Shown one piece after another: positions 5,260-24,746 of a stretch of DNA of 32,000 nucleotides. The notes below the pieces were generated by a model. That model did no database searches and had not been told where the DNA came from. It worked only from the letters and a program-made list of their open reading frames with translations. This stretch comes from Methanothermus fervidus DSM 2088 (GTDB lineage Archaea; Methanobacteriota; Methanobacteria; DSM-2088; Methanothermaceae): the NCBI GenBank assembly GCA_000166095.1, contig CP002278.1, forward strand, positions 300,001 to 332,000, written 5' to 3'. Positions within the stretch are counted from its first letter, which is position 1, and every line of letters starts with the position of its first letter. The translations under genes were made by a program, and so were the position numbers.

Positions 5260-6024
5260 TCAATTTATCATCTCCTTCTCTTCAATCATGTGGACTAGAC
5301 TGGATGTATTACCTTCTCTTATTGCTTCTAGTGCTAAATCTGCAAGATTTGCAGCCTTATATGCTGTAGATGCTTTTCCCACACCTGCTTTTAATTCTAT
5401 ATTTAGTTCTTCATCAACAATTTTTAAAATTTTTAATAAAGCATTTGTTTTCACACCATTACATAAGGACATAAAGTTATCTCCACCAATAAAGAATATA
5501 AGCGCCCCTTTTTTGAAAAGTTCATCCATTAATATTTGATATACTTTATTAACAAAGAGAAATGTGTCATATGCAGATACCGTATCTGTCAATTTTTTAG
5601 TTATACCATTAATGTCAATATGAGCTATCTGTACAAATCCATTTTCAGCTATACTATCTACAGCTAAAATTTCTTTACGTTTTGGAGATTGTGCACTACC
5701 ATATTTTTGAAGGGCCTTTGTGGCATTGTATTGTGCATCATATGGCGTGTTTCCAGCCCCTATTCCCATACTTATTGTGATTGGATATCTATTCCCTATA
5801 GATTTTTGAATGTGTTTATGGTCTTCAATAGATATATTATTGCTAATTGCAAGCATGTTATCAAAACGTGTAAAAAAAACTAATCCTCCTCTTGCGGCGA
5901 ATTGTTGCTCAAGATCTGCATACAATTCTGCTTGTAATATTTGTAAATCGGATTCTGCTTTTGGAGAAGGAGTCACTGTCCAAGGACCATAATTATCTAT
6001 CTGTATCAAAGTCATCTGTATCAT
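5260..6024 (-). CDS. gch3: GTP cyclohydrolase III
   Basis: [20 protein letters not shown]-terminus is characteristic of archaeal GCH III. I prefer ATG 6024 (GGTGG SD 5 nt upstream) over the track's GTG at 6033. Overlaps the cofD 3' end by 32 nt. Confidence 0.85.
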
Positions 6025-6922
6025 ATATTCCACCTAACACTACTTTCGCCACTCTTACTTTGTCTTTAATATTTCTCATTAATATATTCGTCGTTTTAAC
6101 ATCTTTTATTATTTTTTCTACTTTTTTTAAATGAATATCTTTATTATCTAGTACAAATCTATCTAAAAAATCTTTATACATGAGACACACACCATAAGAT
6201 GTAGGTTCATATCCAATTGCCTTCATAAATTTAGCTGCAGGTCCACTAAAAGGTTTATTACCCAAAAATGGTGAAACTGCTGCAACATAAACTTTTTTTA
6301 ATGCTTTTTTTACACCTTTCATCGATATTATTGGTCCTATAGATGTAACCGGATTTGAGGGACCAATTACAACTATATCAGAATTTTCTATTGATTCTAT
6401 AACCTTAGGGGCAGGTTTAACATTTTTATAGGAAACATCAAGTACATTTGGTTTTGCATTTTTTTCTATTAAAAATTCGTGAAATTTCATCTCACCTTCA
6501 TCTGTTATTATCTTAATATTTGACTCTTGATTACTCATTGGTAAGACTTGTGCTTTAATACCAAGTATTTTTCTTTGTATGTCTACAGCCTTTGATAAGT
6601 CATATTTTTCCTTTAAAATTGTTTTTTGAATTTTAAAAGCTCTATCTTTATCTCCAATTTTAAGTAATTCTGGACAACCTAATTTTTTGAGATATTCATG
6701 AGTAACAAATGTGTCATCTCTTCTACCATACCATGTTTTTTCATTTACAATATCTGCAAGAGTATATAACACTGTATCTACATCTGGAGCAATGTACAAA
6801 CCTCTATAGTAAAAATTTTCAACTGTATTGACAATTATGGTTAAATCTTCTTCCTTTATTAATTTTTTTAATCCTTGGATTAACTTAGGCCCACCTGTTC
6901 CTCCAGATAATACTGTTATCAT
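5993..6922 (-). CDS. cofD: 2-phospho-L-lactate transferase (F420 biosynthesis)
   Basis: 309 aa. [19 protein letters not shown]-terminus typical of CofD. ATGA overlap with the cofE stop. Confidence 0.9.
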
Positions 6923-7674
6923 CTAAACACATCATATTCTTTTTTTCTTAATAAAAGTTTAGCGTTTCCATCGCCTTTAAGATGATCAAATTTATATCCA
7001 CGTACTATAACTACGGGTATTCCTTCATTTGCTTGCCCCATAACCATTGATGCTGCCGAAGCAATTTCATCTGCCACCGCAATTTTCGTTGTTTTTAATT
7101 TTCGGCCATAAAGATCTTTTTCACCCCTTCTGTCCCATAGTGGATTTATTCCTGCCACTCCAACTGCAACACCTATTCCTCCATCTCTAAATGGTCTCCC
7201 TTGTGTATCTGATATTATTACAGCTATATCTTTCCCAGTTTCTTTTTTTATTTTATTATAAATCGTTTTAGCACTTTTATCTGGATCTTTGGGAAGTGGT
7301 TTTGCAAAACCTTTTTTAACGTTGGACTCATCTACACCTGCATTTGCACATACAAAACCATGATGGGTTTCTGTAATTACAAAATCATGACCTATCTTTA
7401 CCAACTCTTCAGATTCTCTTAAAATAACTTCCACTAATTTAGGATCTTTATTTATCTTTCTTGCGAGTTTTTTAGCAAATTCACTACATTCAACTTTATT
7501 TAAATCTATTAAATTACCTTCTGCTTTAGACACAATTGTCTCAGCGACAACAATAATATCATTATTCTTTATTCCTACCTTTTCCTTTTCTGCACATTTT
7601 ATTATTAATTTACCTAAATCATCTCCTTTTTTAATCATTGGTAATTTAATACCTATTAGTTCAATTTTCTGCAT
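6919..7674 (-). CDS. cofE: F420-0:gamma-glutamyl ligase
   Basis: 251 aa. CofE-like [14 protein letters not shown] and [12 protein letters not shown] motifs. Adjacent to cofD. Confidence 0.9.
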
Positions 7675-8278
7675 TTAAGCACCTTGCATACATTTCCCAT
7701 TTTTCTTTTTTAAAAGCAGCTGCAGCAGTTACTGGATGTGTAAATTTCTTAAAAATACCTTTATTTAAAATAAAATCTACAGCTTCTTTAGCATTTTTTG
7801 CTTCAAATTTTACTTCTTTAGGTACATTATGCTTATACACTGCTATATAATATGATTTCATTGGTTTAATTTTTTCGATTCTTATGAAATCTTTTGTAAC
7901 AATTCCTATGTATCCTTTTTTATTATTTATTACACCTGCAATTCTTGGTGTATTATATTCATCTTTTTCATAATCAAAAACAAGAAGTGCTAAAGTCATT
8001 GCATCCTTCATGTTCATGCCTGATTCAATCTTTTCAGCTATAATATCTGTGTGTGATCCATTTGAAACAACTGCAACATCATCAACTATTCTTATACAAT
8101 TATAGGAAATATATGGATTTTTAAAAATTTCTTCTTCATGTCCTTCTTTAGGAACAATACTTATTTTATTTTTAAATATTTTTGCTACTCTATTTGGAAA
8201 GGATCTACTAGACACACGATATGCTACATAATATCCATTTTCATTGCTTCCAACAACTAAAAATCTTCCAACATACAA
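7661..8278 (-). CDS. purO: archaeal IMP cyclohydrolase
   Basis: 205 aa. MYVGRFLVVGSNENGYYVAYRVSSRSFPNR matches the PurO N-terminal signature. Its 3' end overlaps the cofE start by 14 nt. Confidence 0.85.
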   Translation of the reverse strand: MYVGRFLVVGSNENGYYVAYRVSSRSFPNRVAKIFKNKISIVPKEGHEEEIFKNPYISYNCIRIVDDVAVVSNGSHTDIIAEKIESGMNMKDAMTLALLVFDYEKDEYNTPRIAGVINNKKGYIGIVTKDFIRIEKIKPMKSYYIAVYKHNVPKEVKFEAKNAKEAVDFILNKGIFKKFTHPVTAAAAFKKEKWEMYARCLNAEN

Positions 8279-11098: not shown

Positions 11099-11530
11099 TC
11101 ACTGATAAACTTTAAAAATAAGCTGTACTTCATCTTTGTCTATATAGGGTCTGTCAAATGAAATTTTTTTCCCAGTGATATCCATATAGAGCAGAGACAT
11201 CAGATGTACATAGGGACATATATATGGAGTTTTACCTTCTTTTAACATTTCCTGCAAAAATTCACTTAAATAAGGTTTTTTAACAATTAATATAACATTT
11301 TTGTCATTTTCTTTTATTTCAAAACTTTCTGCTAAGTTAAATTTTAAAAATAAATTTTTTAAGTCGCTGATATTCATTTTGTCTTGTATGTAACCATGCC
11401 TTTCAAGAAATTTCTTCATATGTTTTGCGACTGTCATGCCTACAGTTTTTCCACTTTCACCTAATAATTCATATAATGCAGAATTAATGCCATAAAATAG
11501 TGAATTAAGGAATACATGTCTTTTTTCCAT
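11099..11530 (-). CDS. small cytoplasmic protein, unknown function (weak V4R/BchJ-like ligand-binding resemblance)
   Basis: 143-aa ORF with no signal peptide. Its start overlaps the stop of the upstream small ORF (TAATG). The V4R-like call is a weak pattern impression only. Confidence 0.5.
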   Translation of the reverse strand: MEKRHVFLNSLFYGINSALYELLGESGKTVGMTVAKHMKKFLERHGYIQDKMNISDLKNLFLKFNLAESFEIKENDKNVILIVKKPYLSEFLQEMLKEGKTPYICPYVHLMSLLYMDITGKKISFDRPYIDKDEVQLIFKVYQ

Positions 11531-11830
11531 TATTTCACCTCTACTTTTATTCCGCCAATTTTGGGTGATAAGTAATTGTAGATTACTGCTGCCAATCCAG
11601 AAATTATGAATCCGACTATAAATCCAATTACAGGTGCACTGAGTATCCCAACAATCATTGCATTATAATTAATTGCATAAGGCATTGGCATCATTGACAG
11701 ATGTATAAAGAATAGAAGACCAAATAACAGTAATTATCAAATTTATTATAGCTGAAATACATGCGATTATTATTGCAAAAGGTATAACACGTATTTTTCT
11801 TATCTCTTTAACTTTCTTTTCTTCTTCCAT
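11530..11830 (-). pseudogene. small two-TM membrane protein gene split into two overlapping frames (53 + 54 codons); either a frameshifted gene or two mini-ORFs
   Basis: ORF A 11669-11830: MEEEKKVKEIRKIRVIPFAIIIACISAIINLIITVIWSSILYTSVNDANALCN*, with GGTGA SD. ORF B 11530-11694: MMPMPYAINYNAMIVGILSAPVIGFIVGFIISGLAAVIYNYLSPKIGGIKVEVK*. Different frames with a 26-nt overlap. Neither is in the track (below its size cut-off). Confidence 0.4.
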
Positions 11831-11919: not shown

Positions 11920-14900
11920 CTATTGCTCAGGCCTTCTCAATAGATATCCTACCGCCATCAATGCAATCAATATTATAACTCCGATTATTCCTGCAAATGG
12001 CACTGATGATGGACTTCCAATTCCTTTAGACACTGGTGTAATCTCATATGCTTTACCTGCTGCAGCACCTGTAATTCCTGCTTTACCTGTAGCACCTGAT
12101 TCTGATGAGGATTTACTTGCAGCTCCAGAAGCTTGAGCTGCTCCTCTTGCACCAACTTCACCACCAACTCTACCTGAAGGACCTGAAATTCCTGGTGAAA
12201 CTCCCCTTGTTGCTGCAGTTCCAATTCCTACTCTTCCTAATGCAGTTGGAGCTCCTAGTTGTGATGGTGCTCCTGGAATTGAAGGTTGTGGTGTAGTTGT
12301 TGGAATTCCAGGGACTGAAGGTTGTGGTGTTGTTGGAGCTCCTGGGATTGAAGGAGCAAATGCAGCATTTTTTGTTGCTATATATAGCTGAGATCTTACT
12401 GAATTTAATAGATTTGGATTTACATAGTTTAATGCCCATCTTATCATAGCTATATTTCCACAACTGCAATCACAGCATGCTGGTCCATATCTGGCTATTA
12501 GAGCTGCCCATCTATTTGCAATTAATCTAAGAGTTTCTGTAGATGGATGCCAGAAGCCTTTGTGGGCTGCTGTAAGTAATGTACCTATGATGCTTATCAT
12601 TGCATATGCTCTATTTCCAGTTGATAGCCATTGTGATACTCCAATGTTGTATTTGTCTTTCACATATACATCTACAATTTCATTCCACATCCAATCTTGG
12701 ACTAGGTGAGGCGTTGTTACTTGAGATAACCAAAGGTTTGAGACAAATTTACGGCTGAAGTATCTGCCAGTTGGATCTGTTTTCATCATTCCTGTTATCC
12801 ATGAAGGATTAAAGTAACGTGTTGCCATCTCTTTAACCATAAATTGTTGTAAATCAAATACCTTTGGGTTATTTCTGTTTGCATAACTTAAAACCATTAT
12901 TGTTGGTGGAGATTTATTTATTCTTTCTATTGCCATTGAAAGTCCGCCCCAATAATCAAAGAAATCATCATTGTCAAGAACTCCATAAAGGTTTGTGTTT
13001 CTACTTGTATATACTATTGACACTCCACTTAATGCTCTCTTAAATACTTCTGGATTGTTAACTCCCCATTTCGTGCTTGAGTAAATATTACTCATTCTAT
13101 TTATGTAAAAATCTGCGAGCTGTGTCCTATTACTCCATGTCCATGCCATTTCAACAGATTTTGATATACCAGCCCCATAATCATTTTCTGGTGGTGCAAA
13201 TATTCGAGATATTGCAAGTTCTCCAGCTTCTTCTGGAGTCATGTTAAGGGACAGGTAATATGCAAAATCTTTCACCCAGTGTTTTGCTATATAATTATCA
13301 TTTAATGATTCGGATCCTAATCCATAAAATCCTACAGGTGTCAATACATAATCTAGAGCTTTTTTTAGTTTTTCACCATATTTCTTTTTAAGTGTTTCAT
13401 TATTAAGTATTGTATAATATGCTGCTGCAAGAGCCAATCTAAATGCTTTATCTAATATTCCAACTTGTCTACTGTACAAATCTCTAAATAAACCGGTTGT
13501 AACTATAACTACGTCAATTCTTTTCTTTGGCCATCCTTCTGGCCTAACAAGATCTTTTAATTCTACAAGTCTTGGAATTTCTTTGACTTTAGCGCCTCCA
13601 ACACCAGCACTTGGAGAGCTTGACCATTCTGGCTTTGCTCCAATAAGATGAAGTACCATTGATATTAATGCTCCATCATCACGTGCAGTTTCTGTACAAA
13701 AAATTCCTACAGCTATCTTTTCGACTTTACTTGCTTCTTCAATAACTTTTCTTTTTTGATTGGGTTTAAGTTTTGTAAATTTCTTTTTATAGAGTTTTTC
13801 TGAAATTTTTTCTGCTAAACCTTCAAGTGTTTGCATTGCTAATATTTTACCATATTCAACAGCTTTTTTAGTTGGTATTTCTTCCGCCTGATTTTGGAAA
13901 AAGTTTCTTCCCGTTGGTAACACGTCTGGATTAACTACTGGATCATTTCCAGGCCCTGGTGGTATAAAACCACAATTTAACGCATTTAACAGTGCTTTTA
14001 TTTCATTTTCAATGCTTTCTTTTATTAGGTTTACATATTTCAATGCTTCTTCAAGAACTTTTTTTAATCCCTCTGTTGGGTTTGAAGTTAAATTATTTAC
14101 TGTTGATTCAAGACCATTTCTAATTAAATTTCTAACTACTTCAATACATTTTTTGTTTATTTCTTCTTTTTGTGTAAATGTAAGGTTGTTGTATTTTTTT
14201 CCACAAATAAGCATTGATATTTCATCTTGTAAAGTTGTTTCAACCTTAGGTGAAATTTCGATAGGTATTGAAAGTATTGAAGTAACTAACATTGCAATCT
14301 CATCATCTGTCCAATTTTTACCAATGGCATGTAAACCATAAGGATAAAGTGTATTTTGTAGGGATGTTAAATAATCTTCAATTGCATCTACAAATTCATC
14401 ATCCTTTAATTCATCCAATCTTTTTCCAATGTAAGCCTCAATTATTTTTGTAAAGTTATTATTCTTGATGACTTCTTTCATTTTAGCTATAATTTGTGGT
14501 TTTACCGATGGATCTGCACCATCGTATTGGCTTACTAAAGATGCTAGTTCTCCATAACCCCCATATAATTCAGTGAATGACATTGGAGGAGTTAAATGAT
14601 CTATCATAACTGCTGATCCTCTTCTTTTAGCTTGAATACCTTCTGCAAGTCCATCCACAATATAGTAGTAAATTTGTGGCGTGCTTCCAACAACAACTTT
14701 TGGAAAGTCATATGGTGCAAGCAATACTTCTTTTCCTGGTAGCCATTCATAAGTAGCGTGTCTTCCAAGATGTACCATTGCATGAGTGTTTTCTTGGAGA
14801 TATAAATATGCTGCAAGATATTGGTGTGGTGGAGCTACAACCATACTATGGTATAATTTGTTGATATCTCCTTCCCATCCACGTTGAGGTTCTGGACAAA

Positions 14901-16947
14901 CAAAAATGTTACCAAACCATATTCCAGGAATAACAAAATATTTTGTGCCATTTTTTTCTATTGTCATTACATTTCCTGGTGGTTCACCCCATCCACAAAT
15001 TCCTGGAACTTTAAGAGAAAGAAATCGTTTTTTATAATCCATAAATTCTTGATAATAACTTTCGTTTTGGGTTAAAAGATATTCTTTTAAAATATTTACT
15101 ATCTTATCTAGTAAAGGTAACACATCTTTGGTTCTATTTTCTGGTAACAATGATACTAACCCTTGGTACCATGAATCTAATCTATCAAACATTTCTTGTG
15201 TATAATTCAATTCTACAGCTTTTCTACATAATTCTCCAATATATCCTACAGGACCTTCAATAACTTGAAGTTTTGTAATATTATCTAATTTTGAGAACCA
15301 TTCTATATATTTATCAACTGGGTAAAGAATTGCACCATTTTCTACCAGCTTTTCAAGCTCTCCTGGTGCCCATGGCGCAATATTAATAGCTTTTTTCAAT
15401 ATCAAATCAAGCAATTCTGTTGTATTTGTAGGAATGTTTTCAACTTTATATCCATTTTCTTTAAGAATATGAAGTAGATTATAAATGCTTGTTATAGTGT
15501 TAAGATAACTTGACCCTATGTTGCTTTTACCTGGTGGATAATTGTAGTAGATTAAAGCAATTTTTTTCTCAGAGTTAGGCATTCTTTTTAAAAGTATCCA
15601 ATTTTTTATTGTGTCTGCTAAAAGCTCAATATTTTTGTCTATCACCTTGTAATCACTGAAAACTAAGCCTGTGATGGGATCTTTACTAGGAGGTGCAAGC
15701 GTTGCAACTATTGTTGGATTTATAATCCCTTGTGCCTCTGGAACTGCTATATGCCACCATTTGTCACCTGTAAGATACCTAATCCCTTGTGAACTAATTT
15801 CCCATTGTTCTGCACTTATATAATCAGAATGTATTGCTCTAAAAACAGGTACATTCAATATTTCAAAAAATTTAATTACGTCTGTAAAATTATCACCGCC
15901 TAAACCAAAGGCTGGCATGCTTATTATAGCATCAACATAAACCTTATACTTAGATGGGTTTGCAAAGAAACTTTCAACATTAGGAGCATCTGTAAATGAT
16001 TCTACCATAACTTTTAACTGATCTGGTGTAGCACCATATGCTACTACTGGTATGACATTTATATTCCGCTTTTCTAGTGCATCGATGAGTGCATAATAAG
16101 GTCCTAATTGTTGAGAACCTACATACATTGTACTTTCAATAATACCAACACATCCGATGGCACTTGTTTTAAAGTAATGTTGTGCATAAACTGTGAGATT
16201 ATCATACCATCCATAGCGGTATATACCATAAATTTTTTCACCAGAAGAAGTTTTAGCCCAGTCAGGTTCGTGCCATTCTACTGAAAATCCTAACCTATTC
16301 AATGCCCATAATATTTGTTCTTTGAGTGCCAAAACATTGTTTAAATCTTTATATAAAACAGCCCTATTGAAATCTTCAGGAGATTTTATAGATGAAAGGT
16401 AATTTTTAACATAATCGTATGATAAACCTCTTTTGGTGTTTTGATACAAGTTATATAATTCTTCGTCTGAAAAATTTTCTAAGAGATATTTTCCTTTGAT
16501 GTTTGAATATCTCATCAAATTAATATACCCTGGAGCAGGTTCAAGAATTAGAAATATTCCATCTTTTTTATTTGTTATTTGTTTATTTTTTGAAAATATT
16601 TCTTGTAAGCGCTTTGACACTGAGTCACTGATCCATTCTCCAATAAATATTTTAGAATTAGAAATCAAATTAACAAATTCATCGTCTTGGATTTTTTCGA
16701 TCTGAGAGCAACTCCTTACTTGAAATTGTACGTTGTTAGTTAGGGTAGTGTTATTTTTTATTAATTCATGTACAGCTTGGTTGGCTATTATAGCTCCTTG
16801 ATTATCACTTAAAATAACTACTGTAATTTTATCTCTACTTGAGTTATTAAAATCTGTTGTATTTAATGCATATACATGCGTAGAGTTAGCTGAAATAAAA
16901 ATTATAAAAGAGATAATAATTATTGACATGAATATAATATTTCGCAT
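11920..16947 (-). CDS. CobN/ChlH-family chelatase-like protein with signal peptide, Pro/Thr linker, Gly/Ala/Ser stalk and C-terminal membrane anchor (predicted cell-surface)
   Basis: 1675 aa. CobN hallmarks HATYEWLPGK, YPYGLHAIG, PPGPGNDPVVNPDVLPTGRNF, DNDDFFDYWGG. N-terminal MRNIIFMSIIIISFIIFISANSTHVYA. Many N-x-S/T sequons. C-terminus ...PFAGIIGVIILIALMAVGYLLRRPEQ. Confidence 0.85.
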   Translation of the reverse strand: MRNIIFMSIIIISFIIFISANSTHVYALNTTDFNNSSRDKITVVILSDNQGAIIANQAVHELIKNNTTLTNNVQFQVRSCSQIEKIQDDEFVNLISNSKIFIGEWISDSVSKRLQEIFSKNKQITNKKDGIFLILEPAPGYINLMRYSNIKGKYLLENFSDEELYNLYQNTKRGLSYDYVKNYLSSIKSPEDFNRAVLYKDLNNVLALKEQILWALNRLGFSVEWHEPDWAKTSSGEKIYGIYRYGWYDNLTVYAQHYFKTSAIGCVGIIESTMYVGSQQLGPYYALIDALEKRNINVIPVVAYGATPDQLKVMVESFTDAPNVESFFANPSKYKVYVDAIISMPAFGLGGDNFTDVIKFFEILNVPVFRAIHSDYISAEQWEISSQGIRYLTGDKWWHIAVPEAQGIINPTIVATLAPPSKDPITGLVFSDYKVIDKNIELLADTIKNWILLKRMPNSEKKIALIYYNYPPGKSNIGSSYLNTITSIYNLLHILKENGYKVENIPTNTTELLDLILKKAINIAPWAPGELEKLVENGAILYPVDKYIEWFSKLDNITKLQVIEGPVGYIGELCRKAVELNYTQEMFDRLDSWYQGLVSLLPENRTKDVLPLLDKIVNILKEYLLTQNESYYQEFMDYKKRFLSLKVPGICGWGEPPGNVMTIEKNGTKYFVIPGIWFGNIFVCPEPQRGWEGDINKLYHSMVVAPPHQYLAAYLYLQENTHAMVHLGRHATYEWLPGKEVLLAPYDFPKVVVGSTPQIYYYIVDGLAEGIQAKRRGSAVMIDHLTPPMSFTELYGGYGELASLVSQYDGADPSVKPQIIAKMKEVIKNNNFTKIIEAYIGKRLDELKDDEFVDAIEDYLTSLQNTLYPYGLHAIGKNWTDDEIAMLVTSILSIPIEISPKVETTLQDEISMLICGKKYNNLTFTQKEEINKKCIEVVRNLIRNGLESTVNNLTSNPTEGLKKVLEEALKYVNLIKESIENEIKALLNALNCGFIPPGPGNDPVVNPDVLPTGRNFFQNQAEEIPTKKAVEYGKILAMQTLEGLAEKISEKLYKKKFTKLKPNQKRKVIEEASKVEKIAVGIFCTETARDDGALISMVLHLIGAKPEWSSSPSAGVGGAKVKEIPRLVELKDLVRPEGWPKKRIDVVIVTTGLFRDLYSRQVGILDKAFRLALAAAYYTILNNETLKKKYGEKLKKALDYVLTPVGFYGLGSESLNDNYIAKHWVKDFAYYLSLNMTPEEAGELAISRIFAPPENDYGAGISKSVEMAWTWSNRTQLADFYINRMSNIYSSTKWGVNNPEVFKRALSGVSIVYTSRNTNLYGVLDNDDFFDYWGGLSMAIERINKSPPTIMVLSYANRNNPKVFDLQQFMVKEMATRYFNPSWITGMMKTDPTGRYFSRKFVSNLWLSQVTTPHLVQDWMWNEIVDVYVKDKYNIGVSQWLSTGNRAYAMISIIGTLLTAAHKGFWHPSTETLRLIANRWAALIARYGPACCDCSCGNIAMIRWALNYVNPNLLNSVRSQLYIATKNAAFAPSIPGAPTTPQPSVPGIPTTTPQPSIPGAPSQLGAPTALGRVGIGTAATRGVSPGISGPSGRVGGEVGARGAAQASGAASKSSSESGATGKAGITGAAAGKAYEITPVSKGIGSPSSVPFAGIIGVIILIALMAVGYLLRRPEQ
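12241..12357 (-). repeat. imperfect 33-36-nt tandem repeats encoding the PS(I/V)PG(A/I)PTT(T)PQ linker of the CobN-like protein
   Basis: Units 12266-12301 and 12302-12334, partial units 12248-12265 and 12335-12357. Locally GC-richer than the rest of the window. Confidence 0.7.
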
Positions 16948-16992
16948 ATAAATTTACTCTCCCAATTTTTTTGATTTAGTTATTATAGCCTA

Positions 16993-17040
16993 AAAAAATA
17001 AATTTTTCCCTAAAAAACAAAAAATTTAAAAAAATAAAAA
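16993..17040 (-). terminator. strong oligo-T terminator candidate after the 437-aa secreted protein gene
   Basis: The minus strand downstream of the stop (17045) reads TGATTCTTTTTTATTTTTTTAAATTTTTTGTTTTTT, four T6-T7 runs. Confidence 0.4.
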
Positions 17041-17044
17041 AGAA

Positions 17045-18358
17045 TCACCAAACATCAGCATATCCTTCTTCTTTCCCTGTATATCTAGCTATATACCTAA
17101 ATTCTCCCCTTGGAGCTATGTATTTACTTATCTCCCTCATCTGTGGATTCAATCCCTCAATTTCATATTTTATTCTTAGATTTAATGGAATTCTATATCT
17201 TGATGGATTTTTGACAATCATTGTTCCAGATACTGCATATTTAAATGGATATTTACCTAACTCTATTGTTTTTGTTTCATTTGGCTTTAGAGTTATTGTT
17301 AATTCTCTATAGCTGACTTTAGTTCCATTAACTGGATTTGTGTAGATTGAGATGTAATATTTTATGGTTATTGTTGATTTTCCTAAGTTTGTTAGGGTTA
17401 TTGTGAAGGTTTTGTTTCCAGAATATTTTGCTGATAATCCTGCAAGTATTATCTTATAAAATTTTCCTGTTCTATTATATGTTAATATGTTTTCACCAGT
17501 CTTATTGAAGTAGTTAGTTACGTCCCAGACATTGTATCCTGCATAATCAGCTGTAGTTTGGCCCCCAGGAAGTATAACATCATTGAATGTATACATTCCA
17601 TCTTGACTTGCAGCATGCACAACTGTAAGTGTAGCATTCTCTATTTTTTCTCTAATATTTGCTATAAATTTTGTTTTGCCTATGTAATTATTATCTTTAT
17701 AACTTACAACGTCATGTCCTAGATTGATCCAATATTCAGTAATGTTCGTGCTGTTTGGAATGTCATATGCAACAACAAGTGTTATTAATTTTATTCTGCC
17801 ATCACGAGATCCAGTGGTGTTTATTAGTGCAGTATTATATCCTGCTGTTGTAAGACTAGTTACATCATACCACATTAGATAATCACTTGTTACTCTCATT
17901 GTATGGTTGTTGACCATTAAGTAAGGATCATTGTCATGACCAGGGCCAAGAATTGCTGTATTATTGTTTCCAGCGGGTGGATAAGTGTAAGTTGTATTGA
18001 GGAATTGACTATCTAGCAATTTTCCATTGTAAGTTACATTAACATATGTTTCCTTAGCTTCTTGCATGTGTCCAGAATATACTAGAACATAAAGTGTTGC
18101 ATTTTTTACAATAGCATTTTCAGGCAATGGTTTAAATTTATAGTAAACATAGGCATTTCCTATACTTTGATTTGCACTTTCTGCATTCCCTGTGAACCCT
18201 AAATAACTGTCTATATAAAGCCCACCAGTCACCTTTCCATGTTTAACAGTTTCTAGTGGTTTGCCACCATAATAAGAGTCAGCATATGTCAACCCTGGTA
18301 ACATAAACAATGCAACCACTATGAGACCCAATATATAAATTTTCTTAATATTTTTCAC
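17045..18358 (-). CDS. secreted beta-rich protein (DUF3344-like body + C-terminal Ig/CARDB-like domain), probably glycosylated
   Basis: 437 aa. Signal peptide [26 protein letters not shown]. Many N-x-S/T sequons. [13 protein letters not shown]-type motif and repeated NATLYV / NATLTV segments resemble DUF3344 as I remember it. The tail [17 protein letters not shown] looks CARDB-like. Confidence 0.55.
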
Positions 18359-18452
18359 CTCCTTTATTTTAATTACAATTTTTTTATTTGTATTACTACA
18401 AAATTATTTTTTTGGTTTTGAAACAATAAAAAAATCAAAAAATGTAGGAAGT
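18359..18452. promoter_or_regulatory. divergent AT-rich promoter region
   Basis: 94-nt gap between divergent genes, made of A/T runs. No motif could be assigned confidently. Confidence 0.3.
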
Positions 18453-19404: not shown

Positions 19405-20013
19405 ATGGCAACTAGGGAATTTATTGTAAGGATGAACGATACTACTACTAGTCCAAATTTTTCATTAAATAATCTTACAGGTGTTGGAAGGTTAGATTTA
19501 GCTTGTAGGGCTGTATCTTCAGCCCTATTTCTTTCTCATTCAATAAGAAAAAACTCTAAAATTTATGTCAACTTAAATGGTCCTCCTTCACCGCCAGTAA
19601 CAATATTATTTGATGCAAAAAATCTAAAAAGAGTATATCCTGATGAGAGGAACATTGCATCTCATATAAGAATTGCATTGAAAAAATTTGATAAAAAAGA
19701 AATTTTCACTGAAACAGAGCCTGGAATTTTCATTGCTAAAAAAAGTTTTGAAGAATTAATAAAAGAAAAAAATAAAAAAGCAGATATTTATTATTTATCA
19801 AAAGATGGCAAAGATATTAGAAAATTTAAATTTAATCTTGAAAAGGATCTTTGTTTTATTCTTGGAGACCATAAGGGAATTCCTAAAAAAACAGAAAAAT
19901 TTTTGGATGAATTAGGAATAAAAAAAATATCTGTTGGTGAAATAGAATACTTAGCATCACAAGTCATTACCATTGTGCATTATGAACTTGATAGACGTTT
20001 AGCAAGTAGGTAA
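19405..20013 (+). CDS. trmY: tRNA (pseudouridine54-N1)-methyltransferase
   Basis: 202 aa. REFIV...GRLDLACRAVSSALFLSHSIR...PPSPPVTILF...VYPDERNIASHI...ILGDHKGIP closely follows the TrmY (SPOUT, former DUF358) pattern. Confidence 0.85.
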   Translation: MATREFIVRMNDTTTSPNFSLNNLTGVGRLDLACRAVSSALFLSHSIRKNSKIYVNLNGPPSPPVTILFDAKNLKRVYPDERNIASHIRIALKKFDKKEIFTETEPGIFIAKKSFEELIKEKNKKADIYYLSKDGKDIRKFKFNLEKDLCFILGDHKGIPKKTEKFLDELGIKKISVGEIEYLASQVITIVHYELDRRLASR

Positions 20014-20597
20014 TCTTTATATGTATTTATATTTAACAGTTCAATTTCTTTTAGAGGAGGAATTGCATAAATTTTTACATTGTTATTGAGCATTTTTTTA
20101 AGAATTGGATTGATATTCCCAGGATATTGAGGTAAATATCTCAAAAGTAATTCCTTCCTAGCTACAAACGGCATGCCAAGTCCTTCCACATTTTCAACAT
20201 ATCCTTCTTTTCCTTTTCTACCTAATATCGACAATACGTCTTTTTTTATAGAAGTTTTTATTAAATTATTGAATGTTTCGCTGGTTACAAATGGTTGATC
20301 TCCTGCCACACACAAACAAATTTCATTGTTACATTCTTTGACACCAGATAATAGTGAATAAGACAATGGAACTTTATCAACCTTAACAATTTTTATATCA
20401 AGGTTTTTAATCAAATTAAAAATTTCTTTTTCTCTATATACAATGATACACTCATCAATTTTAGAGTTAAAAACATTGCTTAAAGTATGAAGCAATATTG
20501 GCTTGTTTCCAATTTTTAATAACAATTTATTTTTTGACACGTGTTTTTTCATTCGTTTACTTTGACCAGCTGCTGCAACTATTGCTGAAACTTTCAA
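19980..20597 (-). CDS. MobA/MocA-like nucleotidyltransferase (NTP_transf_3 type)
   Basis: 205 aa. N-terminal AAAGQSKRM...K.LL..G.P motif of MobA/MocA/IspD-like NTP transferases. 4 nt downstream of the VanW-like gene. Its 3' end overlaps the trmY 3' end by 34 nt. Confidence 0.6.
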   Translation of the reverse strand: MKVSAIVAAAGQSKRMKKHVSKNKLLLKIGNKPILLHTLSNVFNSKIDECIIVYREKEIFNLIKNLDIKIVKVDKVPLSYSLLSGVKECNNEICLCVAGDQPFVTSETFNNLIKTSIKKDVLSILGRKGKEGYVENVEGLGMPFVARKELLLRYLPQYPGNINPILKKMLNNNVKIYAIPPLKEIELLNINTYKDYLLAKRLSSS

Positions 20598-20601
20598 ATT
20601 A

Positions 20602-21783
20602 TCACTCCGGAATTAAATATATTATTTTAACATGTATTTCCATGCTAGGACCATGGCCTTCTGACCACATTATTATCTTTATTGGATATTTACCTGTATT
20701 TGTTATCTTAATATCTGTTGCAGGGTTTATACCATACTTAACTGCCGTATATTCCCAAGTCAATCCTGTAGGCAATGGAAATCCAATACTAGTTACGGCA
20801 TCTCTTAAAGCTCTTGCTGGTGGACAAGTACCATGAGAAGCTGTGCCTGTCGGTGCCTTTGGATCACTAGAAAGTTCAAAACCAACAGATTCTTTACCAG
20901 AGGATGCTGTACCTGGTGGTATTATTGTGTTATTCCATGCTTTAATAAAAGATCTTGCATTTAACTCTCTTTTTAAATCATTATATTCAGGATAAGATCC
21001 CAAATAATCAACTACGTGTATTGCAACTTTTTCCTTGTAATTATGCATGTAAACCATTATAGGAGAATAGCTTGGATAATTTTTCATGTATTCTTTCACA
21101 TTTTTACCAAAAAGTTTTTCAATCTCATTTGGAGGAACTTCGCGCCTATTATCATTAAAATAATTCAATGAATAATCTAAAGTTATATTTTCACCTTCAT
21201 ATGCATTCATATACCATTTTTTAATTTCTTGGACAGAAACATAATCATGAGGTACTGTATCATTATTTATATCTGAAAAACTAACAACTTTAACAATTCT
21301 ATTTTTTTCGACTATTGCTAAGGAATTTTTCGTCTTTACGCCATATGTATATGGAACTTTATAACCCCAAACAAAATTAGATGGAGAATCTACACAAATT
21401 TTACCATTTTTAATTTTTAATATACCAGGTCCTTCATAACCTACAGCTATTCCTCTTCTAGATATATGTTCTCCCAATACTTTCTCCATATTTGGTGTTA
21501 CTCCTGTTAAAATGGAAATCATGACTTCATCATATTGTCGTTCTTTAAAATCTTCTATTAAGTTTGTGGGATGAAGAATTAATGGTGCTTTCCATACTTT
21601 ATCTCTATTCACAACTTTCATTCCTGGAAGTATTGTATCTCCTGCATCAAAAGACGAAACTTCTTTTGGATTTTGGGAGGGACTACCTTTTTCTGCATAC
21701 AACCCAATAGGGGCTGTGATTATTGCTAATGCAAAAAATAAAATAATAAATTTATTTAATTTTTTCAATGATTTCACGCCCAT
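20602..21783 (-). CDS. exported protein with C-terminal VanW-like domain carrying a conserved-looking Cys (candidate cell-wall peptide transpeptidase)
   Basis: 393 aa. Signal peptide KFIILFFALAIITAPIGLYA. The C-terminal ~115 aa are NARSFIKAWNNTIIPPG...GTASHGTC(320)PPARALRDAV...GINPATDIKITNTGKYPIKIIMW...MEIHVKIIY. This parallels the VanW layout N..A..I.G.vl.PG...GGGxCQxSxTLYNA...G.DATv..DlKFkN...pilI. The ATG overlaps the upstream ligase gene by 32 nt. Confidence 0.5.
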   Translation of the reverse strand: MGVKSLKKLNKFIILFFALAIITAPIGLYAEKGSPSQNPKEVSSFDAGDTILPGMKVVNRDKVWKAPLILHPTNLIEDFKERQYDEVMISILTGVTPNMEKVLGEHISRRGIAVGYEGPGILKIKNGKICVDSPSNFVWGYKVPYTYGVKTKNSLAIVEKNRIVKVVSFSDINNDTVPHDYVSVQEIKKWYMNAYEGENITLDYSLNYFNDNRREVPPNEIEKLFGKNVKEYMKNYPSYSPIMVYMHNYKEKVAIHVVDYLGSYPEYNDLKRELNARSFIKAWNNTIIPPGTASSGKESVGFELSSDPKAPTGTASHGTCPPARALRDAVTSIGFPLPTGLTWEYTAVKYGINPATDIKITNTGKYPIKIIMWSEGHGPSMEIHVKIIYLIPE

Positions 21784-23230
21784 ATTTTACTCCTCCCTCT
21801 CCAATAATAAGTATGGTATCATTTTTATCTGCATAACTAAGGGCTTTCTTTATAGCTTCTTCTACTTGAAATTTACTTGCACCTAAAGTTCCTTTTTTAA
21901 ATTTTTTTTCTGTTGATTTTACATTTATTACGGTAGTATTTGTGTATTTTGATGCTTTTCTAGCAGAATATGATGCCGGTATCAATATATCTGCACTACT
22001 TAGAATTTTTGCAATTTTAATGTCTTCTTTGATTCCACTTTCAGATGATATTGTATTGACAACTATTAACCTGCCTTTTGGCTTTATTGTTTGAAGTATT
22101 GCCTTTACACCTGCAACATTGTGTGCATAATCAATTATTATCTCTGGTTTTTTATATATTTTTTCCATTCTTCCAGGAACTTTTTTAAATGTATTTAAAC
22201 CTTCAATTATTTTATCAAAATCAATTTTAAGAATAAATGCAGCTGCAGCAGCTGCTAAGGCATTGTATACATTAAATATACCACCATATTCTAATTTTAC
22301 AAGGCCTTCATTTGAATCAATGGATAAAATAAATTTTTTATTCTCCACATCTATAGCTTTAACTGTTGGTCTTGGTCTTTTAAACCCACATTCACACTCA
22401 TATTTTCCAAGATGTCCTAGAAATATTTCTTCGTATTTTAAATTTTTACCACAGAAAGGACAATCTCTATCCTCAAAAAAATGTTTTATTTTAATTTTTA
22501 AATTTTCAATCCCATAGTAGACTGTGTTGTCATTGCCAAAACTTGCGACTATTGGATCATCAGCATTTAAAACTAGTTTTTTTGCAACTTCCGTAATTTC
22601 TTTTTTACATTCAACATATTCTTGGAAAGAAATATTCTTTAAATGATCTCTTGATATATTTGTAATGACGCCAACAGTTACGTTGCTATTTTTTGCAGAT
22701 CTTTTTATTTCATTTTTTACTCCAAAGGTTCCTATTTCAACAACAGCAACGTCTCCAGGCAATCTTGCCTGTAATGGAGGTATAAACTCTGTATTACCTT
22801 GAATATTTAAATGATGTTCTGGCACCTCAAGCCCAGATATTTTAAGTATGTTTTTTAACATCTCCCTTGTTGTAGTTTTTCCATTTGTACCTGTAATACC
22901 AACTACTGGTTTTTTAACTTTATATTTTAAAATATCTTCTATTTTAATTAATTCTGCTTTTGGATTTTTATTTATTAAATTTAATACTTTTTTATTATTT
23001 GTTAAACTTGGTGCAATTGCTATAGCATCTGCTTTTTTTATTAAAGATAAATCGTGCCCACCTAAATCTAATTTTATACCTTCAGATTTAAATATATCTT
23101 TTAAATATGTATCTTTTCTAATATCTGACACTGTAACATCGTTACCTTTAGATTTTAAAATTCTTGCCATCAAACTACCTACTGTACCACAACCACCAAT
23201 TACAACTATCTTTTTATTTTTTAATTGCAT
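21752..23230 (-). CDS. Mur-ligase family protein (pseudomurein peptide ligase paralog) with MurT-like Cys4 zinc ribbon
   Basis: 492 aa. N-terminal Rossmann VVIGGCGTVG. P-loop GITGTNGKTTT, then VITNISRDHL, NALAAAAAA...VPGRME and DYAHN. Insertion C257PFC260GKNLKYEEIFLGHLGKYEC279EC281GFKRP (nt 22388-22462). Confidence 0.8.
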   Translation of the reverse strand: MQLKNKKIVVIGGCGTVGSLMARILKSKGNDVTVSDIRKDTYLKDIFKSEGIKLDLGGHDLSLIKKADAIAIAPSLTNNKKVLNLINKNPKAELIKIEDILKYKVKKPVVGITGTNGKTTTREMLKNILKISGLEVPEHHLNIQGNTEFIPPLQARLPGDVAVVEIGTFGVKNEIKRSAKNSNVTVGVITNISRDHLKNISFQEYVECKKEITEVAKKLVLNADDPIVASFGNDNTVYYGIENLKIKIKHFFEDRDCPFCGKNLKYEEIFLGHLGKYECECGFKRPRPTVKAIDVENKKFILSIDSNEGLVKLEYGGIFNVYNALAAAAAAFILKIDFDKIIEGLNTFKKVPGRMEKIYKKPEIIIDYAHNVAGVKAILQTIKPKGRLIVVNTISSESGIKEDIKIAKILSSADILIPASYSARKASKYTNTTVINVKSTEKKFKKGTLGASKFQVEEAIKKALSYADKNDTILIIGEGGVKYGREIIEKIK

Positions 23231-24746
23231 CTAATATGTCTCCTTTTACATTATCATAAGCATTGACAACGCCTGGACCTATATGTAGAATCAAATCTCC
23301 TTTTTTTGATAATTCGATAGCCTTTAGTATTGAATCACGTACATTAGATGTTATTATTGTTTTGCATTCTTTTGCTCCTCTAGCAACTTCTTCAGCAGCA
23401 TTCCAGTCTATTTCTCCAGTAGTTTCATTTTTAGCACTGCATATAAGTATATCAGCTTTTTTTGACAGAATTCTACCAATTCTAAATTTATCTCTAGTTG
23501 TGAGAGTATCTGGATTATCAAGACTTATAATAAGTCTACCTTTCACATCTAAGTTTCCAATGACTTTTTCCATACTTTCTGGATTGTGTGCAGCGTCCAT
23601 ATATATTTTAACACCATCAATTTCTCCTATTTTTTCAAATCTGCCTTTTATACCTTTGAAATTTTCTAATTTTTCTTTTATATATTTCATTTTAAGTCCT
23701 AAAGCCAAACCAACAGTAATAGTTGCAAGAGAATTTTCAATATTTACTATCCCTGGAATTTGCAACTTTATGTTTTTTTCAAAAGGTCCAACATATCTTC
23801 TTTTAAATTCTCCACATTTGCATAATAATTCACCACAATTTTCGCAAATGACTGTTGGTATCTCATTAACCACAGCTTTAAATTTGGATCCGTCTAATCC
23901 TTCCAAAACAATATCTTTTGCTGTTACATCAGGTTTAGGCTTCTTTCCATCAAAACTATAAACTTTTGATTTATATTTAATTTTTTGTGGCTTGCCTAAC
24001 CCATAAAATACAATTTCTTTGTTAACAGAATTTTTTAACTTATATATAATTGGATCGTCACTATTGAAGACCAAAAGACCATTTTTATGCACTAAATCCT
24101 TTACTAAAAAATTTCTTTTCACATAATCCCAATATCCATCAAATTCATCCAAATGGTCAGGTGTTAAATTTGTTAAAACACCTACAGATAACTCCAAACC
24201 TTTAACCATTCTTATAGTTCCATGAGGTAATTCAAAAACAGCAAATTCTTTATCTTTGTAATCCTGATTTACGACAATCTCTGCAAGACCTTCTATTACT
24301 AAAGAATCTTGAAGAGAAGAAAAGACAAGTGTTGAATATTTATCTTTTAACAGATAATATATCATGTTTGTGGTCGTTGTCTTTCCATCAGTGCCTGCAA
24401 CGCCAACCATAGGCATGTTGATAAATTTCCCTAAAATTTTGCCAATTTCCTCGGGAGTTATTATTTCTAGTCCTGATTTCTTAACAATTTTAACAATTTC
24501 AGAGTTTGTGGGTATACTTGGTGAAATAAATACTTTTTCAGCCCAATCCAAACTTTTAGGATTATGATGCCCAAATTCAAATTTTATGCCCATTTTTTTC
24601 ATTTTTTTTATTTTTTTCTTTGCCTTAGGTGGTAATTCCTCAAATTTTTTAATTTCACTGACCAATACTTCGTTACCTAAATAGTGTAAAAGCAATGCTG
24701 CAGGCCTACCAGCATTTCCTGCCCCAATAACAAGAATTTTTGACAT
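23214..24746 (-). CDS. Mur-ligase family protein (pseudomurein peptide ligase paralog) with Cys4 insertion
   Basis: 510 aa. VIGAGNAGRPAA, GVAGTDGKTTTT, VLTNLTPDHL, GIKGRFE, DAAHNP. Insertion C301ENC304GELLC309KC311GEFKR (nt 23814-23846). Overlaps the next ligase gene by 17 nt. Confidence 0.8.
   Translation of the reverse strand: MSKILVIGAGNAGRPAALLLHYLGNEVLVSEIKKFEELPPKAKKKIKKMKKMGIKFEFGHHNPKSLDWAEKVFISPSIPTNSEIVKIVKKSGLEIITPEEIGKILGKFINMPMVGVAGTDGKTTTTNMIYYLLKDKYSTLVFSSLQDSLVIEGLAEIVVNQDYKDKEFAVFELPHGTIRMVKGLELSVGVLTNLTPDHLDEFDGYWDYVKRNFLVKDLVHKNGLLVFNSDDPIIYKLKNSVNKEIVFYGLGKPQKIKYKSKVYSFDGKKPKPDVTAKDIVLEGLDGSKFKAVVNEIPTVICENCGELLCKCGEFKRRYVGPFEKNIKLQIPGIVNIENSLATITVGLALGLKMKYIKEKLENFKGIKGRFEKIGEIDGVKIYMDAAHNPESMEKVIGNLDVKGRLIISLDNPDTLTTRDKFRIGRILSKKADILICSAKNETTGEIDWNAAEEVARGAKECKTIITSNVRDSILKAIELSKKGDLILHIGPGVVNAYDNVKGDILDAIKK

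Follow-up and report, generated by a model that had tools for sequence, protein, structure and literature searches.

Two adjacent genes in the archaeon Methanothermus fervidus DSM 2088, a heat-loving methanogen, may encode the two halves of one cell-envelope machine that acts on metals and tetrapyrroles outside the cell. The genes reside in a 32,000-nucleotide stretch of DNA (GenBank contig CP002278.1, positions 300,001 to 332,000; hereafter the window, whose first letter is position 1), and both are read from its minus strand. The first encodes a 437-amino acid protein with a DUF3344 domain, and the second, which begins after a gap of 97 nucleotides, encodes a 1675-amino acid homolog of the class I chelatase large subunits CobN and HmuS. 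Enzymes of this kind insert metals into, or remove them from, rings like those of vitamin B12 and chlorophyll. An original prediction, made from the sequence of this region, had proposed that the pair forms an ATP-independent extracellular module for binding or scavenging tetrapyrroles or metals, and its coordinates, strand, protein lengths and intergenic distance agree exactly with the list of open reading frames (ORFs). The predicted export of the entire protein family, its link to DUF3344 and the lack of a local AAA+ partner are upheld, and an ATP-independent extracellular role in metal or tetrapyrrole metabolism remains the best reading of the data. More specifically, we consider it quite possible, though still tentative, that the system is a metal-tetrapyrrole chelatase or dechelatase used to scavenge Ni or Co.

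According to this proposal, one half of the machine would be a secreted DUF3344 beta-sandwich module, attached to the envelope via the C-terminal domain of an S-layer glycoprotein. The other half would be a catalytic subunit from the class I chelatase superfamily that faces outward, resembles HmuS most closely in architecture and fold, and is held to the membrane by a flexible tether of approximately 125 residues and one C-terminal transmembrane helix. In sister genera, the two halves are joined in a single polypeptide.

A relative of HmuS, CobN and ChlH that is predicted to be exported

The assignment of the 1675-residue protein to the CobN family is upheld by its match to Pfam model PF02514 (CobN-Mg_chel), at 808 bits (E=1.6e-242; gathering score, 24.5). 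A look-up of its exact sequence returned no entry. In the Protein Data Bank (PDB), its best match by sequence is HmuS from Bacteroides thetaiotaomicron (9d26; E=1e-99), followed by ChlH (2e-82) and CobN (9e-81). An AlphaFold2 (AF2) model of residues 326-1525 (pLDDT 79.9, pTM 0.80) also places HmuS first, with TM-scores of 0.73 for HmuS, 0.70 for Mycobacterium tuberculosis CobN and 0.62-0.65 for ChlH. Over this span, which begins after the head domain (residues ~28-325), the model agrees with the six-domain head-neck-body fold and its cavity between domains III and V. The original prediction had asked whether the residues lining such a cavity persist, and a His-Glu-Asp triad is indeed retained there as judged by alignment. 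Within the HmuS/CobN/ChlH superfamily, the protein falls into an archaeal clade whose members are uncharacterised, and it combines the architecture of HmuS with a metal site of the CobN type.

Hydropathy analysis identifies just two hydrophobic segments in this protein, at residues 4-22 and 1652-1670. Each segment is bordered by basic residues, which lie on the same side of the membrane at the two termini, and the positive-inside rule therefore predicts that the body of approximately 1600 residues is located outside the cell. The protein carries 23 N-glycosylation sequons, compared to 12.4+-3.2 in composition-matched shuffles, and the counts for seven cytoplasmic neighbours equal the shuffle expectation. 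All of the topological features named in the original prediction (a signal-like N-terminus, the sequons, a Pro/Thr linker, a Gly/Ala/Ser stalk, and a single C-terminal transmembrane helix with the tail RRPEQ) are present in the sequence. Conservation falls to 0.07-0.35 in the tether when 121 family members are aligned, the others being 44-62% identical to the window protein, and local GC content reaches 0.40 there.

These features are not peculiar to M. fervidus. Among the 120 closest protein clusters, which serve as our homolog set, 91 have an N-terminal hydrophobic segment even by a strict hydropathy filter, and nearly all sampled homologs have a C-terminal transmembrane helix that ends in GY(F/L)(R/K) and is followed by a short or approximately 20-residue cytoplasmic tail. 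Orthologs therefore retain both signal and anchor, and the exported, tethered topology is predicted to be a trait of the whole family.

A second clade of CobN paralogs (approximately 1500-1670 amino acids) is found in the same loci as the homologs described here (L001 15035-19633; L002 6659-11314; L006 15041-19522; L069 11241-16241). Its members have the canonical motif H(M/L)GTHGTLE(F/W), an N-terminal signal-like segment and a C-terminal transmembrane helix. Exported CobN-like proteins of at least two paralogous types thus seem to exist in Methanobacteriales, and export seems to be general in the order. Glycoproteomics data from Haloferax were considered as evidence for export and set aside, because the CobN protein of that organism is predicted to be cytosolic and its gene adjoins a ChlID gene, indicating a different clade.

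A DUF3344 partner with predicted secretion and an S-layer domain

The 437-residue protein matches PF11824 (DUF3344) over essentially the full length of the profile (positions 1-274 of 275) with 233 bits against a cutoff of 27.2 (E=5e-69). Its single hydrophobic segment by hydropathy is N-terminal, and homologs share the YA/D-x-Y-x-GG junction at the predicted signal peptide cleavage site. The protein contains 15 N-glycosylation sequons, whereas composition-matched shuffles contain 5.5+-1.9. Its AF2 model consists entirely of strands (pLDDT 82.9, pTM 0.76). In the region 18340-18370 (minus strand), the sole in-frame start of the gene is a GTG within the Shine-Dalgarno-like sequence AGGAGGTG / AAGGAGGTG, with zero spacer.

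The C-terminal portion of the protein was originally described as Ig/CARDB-like. It does form a beta-sandwich in the AF2 model, but its identity is more specific: residues 314-437 are identical at 122 of 124 positions (98%) to the C-terminal domain (residues 470-593) of the Methanothermus sociabilis S-layer glycoprotein, CSG_METSC. The same module shares 76% and 73% identity with the C-termini of two M. fervidus surface proteins. This identity indicates that the DUF3344 module may be held in the envelope by the same domain that the S-layer protein uses, and the approximately 124-residue module may be an envelope-anchoring domain of the genus. The near-identity also marks the source as a Methanothermus-like hyperthermophile. 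The two M. fervidus surface proteins carry the label 'polymorphic outer membrane proteins', and near-identity of the module between surface-protein paralogs suggests recent domain shuffling or gene conversion.

DUF3344 surface proteins of other methanogens and of Methanoperedens are likewise secreted and combined with Ig-like modules. Where those proteins usually have CARDB, PKD or beta-helix partners, however, the M. fervidus protein has the Methanothermus S-layer domain instead. Our literature search found no function for any DUF3344 protein, and a screen for fibrillar adhesins flagged DUF3344 as a cluster of ambiguous function.

Fusion and linkage of the two proteins

The two genes are very strongly linked, and in a number of relatives they are fused. 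A DUF3344 segment is located within the same polypeptide, in the order DUF3344-CARDB-CobN, in 37 of the best 120 CobN-like clusters. These fusions include the nearest homologs, which are 2000-2125 amino acids long and share 59-62% identity (Methanothermobacter) or approximately 50% identity (Methanobacterium) with the window protein. Residues 1-313 of the DUF3344 protein, signal peptide included, are collinear with residues 1 to approximately 310 of the fusions at up to 62% identity, and the mature CobN-like protein aligns directly after their one or two CARDB domains. Among 79 loci from species-representative genomes, which form our neighbourhood set, 60 have a same-strand DUF3344 homolog within 10 kb, and many of the remainder are truncated contigs. 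The co-occurrence with DUF3344 that was foreseen from the M. fervidus sequence is therefore maintained among relatives.

Judged by this collinearity, either a single protein was split to give the gene pair, or an original pair was joined in the fusions. Both window proteins have a predicted signal peptide of their own. Methanothermobacter sp. K4 exhibits a similar split, in which a DUF3344 gene is followed by a 149-nucleotide gap and then by a CARDB-CobN gene. In the complete genome of Methanobacterium ferruginis NBRC 105197 (locus L065, 8393-14701), the fused gene appears broken into four successive ORFs of 895, 297, 137 and 821 amino acids with none of the three usual downstream partner genes described below, and is possibly a pseudogene. 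No description of the export of this archaeal clade, of its fusion to DUF3344 or of its HmuU/V-type neighbours was found in the literature.

A conserved metal site and a cysteine cluster

The active-site residues of the superfamily, namely the His of the HxGxH motif, the Glu equivalent to ChlH E660 and the KRR sequence, are present as H730, E769 and K774-R776. In the 121-member alignment, G728, R729, H730, T732 and E734 are invariant and the entire G-R-H-A-T-x-E string is unchanged, as are E769, K774, R775 and R776. The domain V motif LDNDDFFDYWGG is similarly constrained: D1325, N, D, D, D1331, Y and W are found in 121 of 121 sequences and the two Gly residues in 120-121. A cryo-EM preprint from 2026 reports that, with no corrin present, two Co2+ ions are located at H554, E593 and D1100 of CobN (10.64898/2026.07.21.739949). 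These ligands map by alignment onto H730, E769 and D1327 of the window protein.

An additional feature is the Cys cluster A-C-C-D-C-S-C-G-N in the C-terminal helical domain, which is maintained in 114-115 of the 121 homologs (approximately 95%), with His replacing Cys in a few exceptions. HmuS has only two of these Cys residues, and no ChlH or CobN match spans the segment.

Comparison with characterised chelatases

According to the original prediction, exported CobN homologs are not known to have a characterised function, and this statement must be revised. HmuS (also BtuS) of Bacteroidota, a heme dechelatase, is a membrane-bound protein with one transmembrane helix at each terminus that takes Fe(II) from heme without ATP (PMC12583661). 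Its extracytoplasmic location has experimental support (PMC12583661, PMC6460266), and BtuS relatives were predicted in 2018 to be periplasmic and membrane-anchored (PMC6460266). According to the 2025 study of HmuS, the 'CobN' genes of archaea show no association with cob genes, and the archaeal homologs are listed there as unexplained (PMC12583661).

The likeness to HmuS extends well beyond rank in the sequence and fold searches. We recovered a full HmuS gene from a gut metagenome contig for comparison, and its product has transmembrane segments at residues 7-25, after MKKKSK, and at 1436-1454, before RKRRK. Both proteins are therefore organised, by prediction for the archaeal one, as an N-terminal anchor or signal, a six-domain body outside the cytoplasm, a C-terminal transmembrane helix and a basic tail. 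They also have in common a C-terminal helical extension without a match in ChlH or CobN, the equivalence of HmuS H538, E577 and D1208 with H730, E769 and D1327, the lack of an AAA+ partner, and, for other Methanobacteriales orthologs, a position ahead of homologs of HmuU and HmuV (DUF2149).

The two proteins also differ. The site-1 heme ligands M79 and H254 (of the HGR motif) of HmuS are W105 and F347 in the window protein (the latter is Y in most of the family), R256 is a Leu and Q299 is W398. The Met-rich insertion of HmuS (12 Met in 60 residues near position 780) is absent, the maximum in the archaeal protein being 6 in an unrelated region. The HmuS motif LSLDHxxEFMGG reads LDNDDFFDYWGG, such that H1209 is replaced by D1328 and E1212 by D1331. 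No archaeal locus encodes a HmuY hemophore or a HmuR receptor, an outer membrane being absent from archaea, and the place of HmuT in the operon is occupied by DUF2162, for which no relationship to HmuT was detected. Finally, the archaeal protein is paired with or fused to DUF3344 and has a long Pro/Thr-Gly/Ser tether, and the window wholly lacks U/V-like genes.

CobN of the CobNST complex (PDB 7c6o, 9uk9) belongs to the same Pfam family and is the best match for domain III (E=6e-35). Its residues H554, E593 and D1100, along with the neighbouring D1101, are conserved in the window protein, and the domain V motif is of the DxDD(Y/F)(Y/F) type in both; CobN reads LDSDDYYQFEGG, and the window protein LDNDDFF. 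However, CobN is cytoplasmic, relies on the CobS/CobT AAA+ motor and adaptor, and serves the aerobic B12 pathway, whereas export and membrane tethering are predicted for the archaeal protein, and comparable partners are not encoded in its vicinity. Its scores also lie far below every CobN equivalog cutoff in NCBIfam (NF004645, 717.7 vs 1619; TIGR02257, 463.7 vs 822; NF004644, 516.7 vs 1248). The closest sequenced relatives, Methanothermobacter, use the anaerobic CbiX route with early cobalt insertion (PMC3087415), and thus would have no need for a CobN in B12 synthesis.

ChlH/BchH (PDB 4zhj) is the most distant of the three by both sequence and fold, although superfamily, head-neck-body fold and HxGxH motif are shared and its residues E625 and E660 have counterparts in the window protein. 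It differs in having a His in domain V where the archaeal protein has Asp, and in being a cytoplasmic or plastidic enzyme that uses ATP and ChlI/ChlD to act on protoporphyrin IX and Mg. The BchH equivalogs are likewise below their cutoffs (TIGR02025, 484.5 vs 829; NF009140, 446 vs 1300).

A gene triad accompanies the family in most relatives

The usual partners of this protein family, on which the original prediction was silent, are DUF2162, a MotA/ExbB-family protein and DUF2149. In 66-69 of the 79 Methanobacteriaceae loci, as shown by ORF clustering, their genes come immediately after the CobN-like gene (examples are L011 15031-16731 and L083 7159-8864). DUF2162 is a polytopic protein of approximately 235 amino acids with an invariant membrane motif, A-P-C-P-C-C-F-G, and the other two have approximately 214 and 112 amino acids, respectively. 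A similar order is found in the bacterial hmu operon (hmuYRSTUV), which encodes HmuS, HmuT, HmuU (MotA/ExbB) and HmuV (DUF2149). HmuU shares 36% identity with the archaeal MotA/ExbB protein (E=1e-38), and HmuV and its archaeal counterpart are both members of the DUF2149 Pfam family. Because the last two partners are homologs of HmuU and HmuV, the chelatase-like protein of the relatives may be coupled to the proton-motive force. A correspondence between HmuT and DUF2162 was discarded, as BLAST, Pfam and hhalign (probability 0.6%) revealed no relationship.

The triad follows a Methanothermobacter ortholog that is 61% identical to the window protein, and the M. fervidus protein therefore belongs to the triad-linked group. 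The triad was not found within 10 kb of the orthologs from M. thermautotrophicus and Methanothermobacter sp. K4.

Proposed function and alternatives

We propose that the archaeal protein acts in a manner resembling HmuS. Its extracellular ligand would be a metal-tetrapyrrole, or else a metal plus a tetrapyrrole, and it would remove or exchange the metal without ATP. The central cavity retains the triad of H730, E769 and D1327, whose equivalents bind Co2+ in CobN and a cation in HmuS. The freed metal would be passed to an uptake system encoded elsewhere, and the DUF3344 module would most likely capture or present the substrate at the cell surface.

Indirect evidence, none of it decisive, makes Ni or Co a more likely metal than Fe. 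In plasmids of Methanoperedens, genes for extracellular DUF3344 proteins are flanked by those for CbiMNQO Ni/Co transporters on one side and NikR on the other (PMC9674854). In Methanothermobacter marburgensis, CobN1 (143 kDa) increases approximately 300-fold, together with NikR1, under Ni limitation, and not under limitation for Fe or substrate (PMC12350162). The CobN-type DxDD site, the Cys4 cluster and the CPCC motif of DUF2162 are, as sequence motifs, consistent with soft metals. A more detailed version of the proposal is doubtful in its entirety. In this version, the surface enzyme, fed by DUF3344, would either remove Ni or Co from F430-type or corrinoid macrocycles in the environment or seize the free ions, and would thereby supply the very large demand of methanogenesis for both metals. 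In the relatives, the enzyme would be coupled to a MotA/ExbB-DUF2149 stator and to DUF2162 with its CPCC motif.

Several observations weigh against the proposed function. The predicted topology derives entirely from hydropathy and the positive-inside rule. The site-1 heme ligands and the Met-rich insertion of HmuS are missing, and thus its mechanism cannot be transferred wholesale. A fold search with the DUF3344 model returned generic jelly-roll and Ig-like matches only, which offer no clue to a ligand. The Ni-induced CobN1 of M. marburgensis cannot be equated with the protein studied here, because it is a smaller paralog (CobN1, CobN2 and CobN3 have 143-164 kDa) and orthology is not established. 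Moreover, tblastn searches of the window detect no DUF2162, MotA/ExbB or DUF2149 (all E>0.02), and a Methanothermobacter DUF2162 query has no Methanothermus protein among its best 120 matches. Without a transporter or the triad in the window, metal hand-off and energy coupling are unaccounted for locally.

Among the alternatives, the one that best withstands the evidence is that the exported body, with or without DUF3344, is a high-affinity surface binder of free Ni2+ or Co2+, whose His-Glu-Asp site and Cys4 cluster would enrich metal at the envelope before its uptake by CbiMNQO-type or DUF2162-type transporters. We regard this as rather unlikely. The equivalent site of CobN binds its two Co2+ ions in the absence of corrin, the Cys cluster is found across the family, DUF2162 has its CPCC motif, DUF3344 genes adjoin those for Ni/Co transporters and NikR, and the authors of the Ni-limitation study called CobN1 a 'possible metal-chelating protein' (PMC12350162). 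However, a six-domain body of approximately 1500 residues with a fully conserved cavity of the tetrapyrrole type seems oversized for ion binding alone, and tetrapyrroles are the substrates of all superfamily members characterised so far. In addition, the residues that line the HmuS cleft, for which a role in holding the propionates is predicted, have similar polar counterparts in the window protein (T for S1067, T for S1199 and N for Q1198).

The reaction might also proceed in the opposite direction, such that salvaged corrinoid or F430-type macrocycles that are metal-free or wrongly metallated receive their metal outside the cell before uptake. Metal-free corrinoids are scarce in nature, the window encodes neither a motor nor a corrinoid transporter, and the sole characterised exported member of the superfamily runs toward dechelation (PMC12583661), which together make this distinctly unlikely despite the CobN-type active site. 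Such a forward chelatase would agree with the BtuS hypothesis of Rodionov and with the idea of a late cobaltochelatase for salvage in haloarchaea, and the MotA/ExbB-type motor of the relatives could perform the conformational work that is done by AAA+ subunits in the cytoplasm.

A third alternative, that the chelatase fold has been re-used in a non-catalytic, adhesin-like or structural S-layer-associated glycoprotein, is highly unlikely. The protein is indeed found among, or fused to, archaeal surface modules such as DUF3344, CARDB, PKD and NosD/beta-helix, the ambiguous status of DUF3344 in the adhesin screen leaves room for such a role, and pseudomurein biosynthesis genes are nearby. However, the pseudomurein genes are not conserved neighbours, and the catalytic-site residues are invariant across the 121 sequences while the linkers drift freely, a pattern that points to an enzyme or to a specific metal site, not to a scaffold.

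Lastly, the database annotation as a cytoplasmic CobN of an ATP-dependent cobaltochelatase for cobalamin biosynthesis is extremely improbable, because the name 'cobaltochelatase subunit CobN' given to homologs, the CobN-type metal triad with its DxDD motif, and the HemA and SirC-like genes approximately 10 kb away are outweighed by the failure to reach any CobN or BchH equivalog cutoff, the conserved signal peptide, sequon enrichment, tether and membrane anchor, the fusions to secreted surface domains in relatives, the lack of CobS/CobT or ChlI/ChlD in the window, the CbiX route in Methanothermobacter, and the dissociation of archaeal 'CobN' genes from cob genes (PMC12583661). The predicted topology and the fusions already contradict it.

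Implications for metal acquisition

Methanogens require unusually large amounts of Ni, for F430 and hydrogenases, and of Co, for corrinoids. How they acquire these metals at nanomolar environmental levels is a poorly understood problem on which this gene pair bears. The name 'cobaltochelatase CobN' is almost certainly wrong for this widespread archaeal family, whose members are predicted to be exported, have a CobN-type metal site, are fused to or paired with DUF3344, and in most genomes adjoin genes for HmuU/V-type proton channels.

If the more detailed version of our proposal is correct, then the system would be an archaeal counterpart of heme-iron piracy that is aimed at Ni or Co. The HmuU/V-type motor would serve the chelatase itself, with the proton-motive force replacing the cytoplasmic AAA+ motor, which would prompt a second look at the role of HmuTUV in Bacteroides. 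Because archaea have neither an outer membrane nor a TonB-dependent receptor, the link between the chelatase and MotA/ExbB-DUF2149 bears on whether HmuTUV in Bacteroides power the receptor or the dechelatase. Furthermore, a surface-exposed protein that is conserved in the Methanobrevibacter of rumen and gut is a possible target for methane mitigation.

Features of the gene pair and its surroundings

The positions of the two genes and of their recognisable features are collected in Table 1.

Table 1. Features of the DUF3344 and CobN-like genes in the M. fervidus window
Feature	Position	Strand	Basis
Secreted DUF3344 protein gene, 437 amino acids	17045..18358	-	ORF; PF11824 E=5e-69; collinear with fused homologs
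Predicted signal peptide of DUF3344 protein, residues 1-26 (...LPGLTYA/DSYYGG)	18281..18358	-	Hydrophobic segment 7-25
DUF3344 domain, residues 28-310, all-beta jelly-roll-type fold	17429..18277	-	Pfam match; AF2 model
C-terminal beta-sandwich, residues 314-437, presumed envelope/S-layer attachment	17048..17419	-	S-layer glycoprotein identity
Spacer of 97 nucleotides with five T6-T7 runs, then A/T-rich sequence and, ahead of the CobN-like ATG, the ribosome-binding site GGGAGAG	16948..17044	-	Sequence
Predicted exported, membrane-tethered CobN/HmuS-like class I chelatase large-subunit homolog, 1675 amino acids	11920..16947	-	PF02514, HmuS match, model
N-terminal signal-like segment, residues 1-27 (MRN, 17 hydrophobic residues, ...THVYA/LN)	16867..16947	-	Hydropathy
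Active-site motif HLGRHATYEW, residues 726-735	14743..14772	-	Alignments; H730 = HmuS H538 = CobN H554
Motif LAEGIQAKRR, residues 767-776	14620..14649	-	E769 = ChlH E660, HmuS E577, CobN E593
Domain V motif LDNDDFFDYWGG, residues 1324-1335, CobN-type	12943..12978	-	D1327 = CobN D1100 = HmuS D1208; D1328 in place of HmuS H1209
Cys cluster A-C-C-D-C-S-C-G-N, residues 1490-1498, C-terminal helical domain	12454..12480	-	Alignment
Low-complexity tether, residues ~1526-1650 (~125 amino acids), Pro/Thr repeats then Gly/Ala/Ser-rich	11998..12372	-	Sequence
C-terminal transmembrane helix, residues 1651-1670 (...VGYLL), and predicted cytoplasmic tail RRPEQ	11923..11997	-	Hydropathy

The oligo-T tract that had been noted between the two genes comprises the five T6-T7 sense-strand runs of the spacer, which follow the DUF3344 stop codon directly; coding sequence contains 0.44 such runs per kb. 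The spacer might thus work as an archaeal terminator or promoter, and separate transcripts are plausible, through termination with partial read-through or through a second promoter. A scan for sigma-70 promoters and hairpin terminators yielded 35 sites where 41.9 were expected, a comparison that is not meaningful for an archaeon, and counts of oligo-T runs and TATA-like boxes were used instead. Neither a riboswitch nor a member of any other RNA family was detected when the whole window was scanned with Rfam.

The small membrane protein gene reported downstream of the CobN-like gene is in fact two ORFs (11669..11830 and 11530..11694, minus strand) of 53 and 54 amino acids, each with a single transmembrane segment, that overlap by 26 nucleotides in different frames. 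They have their own archaeal TATA box, TTTATATA, located 49 nucleotides upstream of the first ATG, and no homologs in the 79 related loci. They could be one frameshifted gene for a protein with two transmembrane segments, or a small-protein operon. The possibility that they are a degenerate DUF2149/ExbD was rejected, given only a chance-level tblastn match (E=1.3). The next ORF (143 amino acids), whose start codon overlaps the preceding stop codon, had been considered weakly V4R/BchJ-like, but it has no Pfam V4R or BchJ match even at E<=10 and its linkage is not conserved. Indeed, no downstream or divergent neighbour is kept beside CobN-like genes in the 79 loci, and the inclusion of the downstream genes in a functional module is therefore not sustained.

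The remainder of the window, whose GC content is approximately 30%, was surveyed by domain searches. No AAA+ protein of the ChlI, ChlD, CobS or CobT type is encoded within the 32 kb, as had been claimed. The other genes encode HemA, a SirC-like protein, an ABC ATPase, CofD, CofE, PurO, HisB, a nucleotidyltransferase, DUF169, TrmY, PmurA, PmurB, three Mur-type ligases, Mre11/Rad50-like proteins and a radical SAM protein. The HemA/SirC, F420 and pseudomurein genes were rejected as functional context, since none is kept beside CobN-like genes in the 79 loci.

Some of these genes form recognisable groups. PmurB, PmurA and the three Mur-type ligases constitute a pseudomurein cluster (19980-24746, minus strand, and 28690-29910, plus strand), in which PmurA (Mfer335 family) scores 515 bits against a cutoff of 400 and PmurB, at 208 bits, is under the equivalog cutoff of 260. 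These pseudomurein genes place the organism in Methanobacteriales. CofD, CofE and PurO (5993-8278, minus strand) have the same order as MTBMA_c14000-c14020 of M. marburgensis. The genes that follow in M. marburgensis include a 'biopolymer transport protein' (ExbB-like, c14040), whereas the window has a ModE/TOBE-like regulator there. Finally, GC and AT skew change sign sharply near 26 kb (from about -0.2 to +0.4). At the same place, between the Mre11-like and Rad50-like genes, which are divergent, the coding strand changes from minus to plus.

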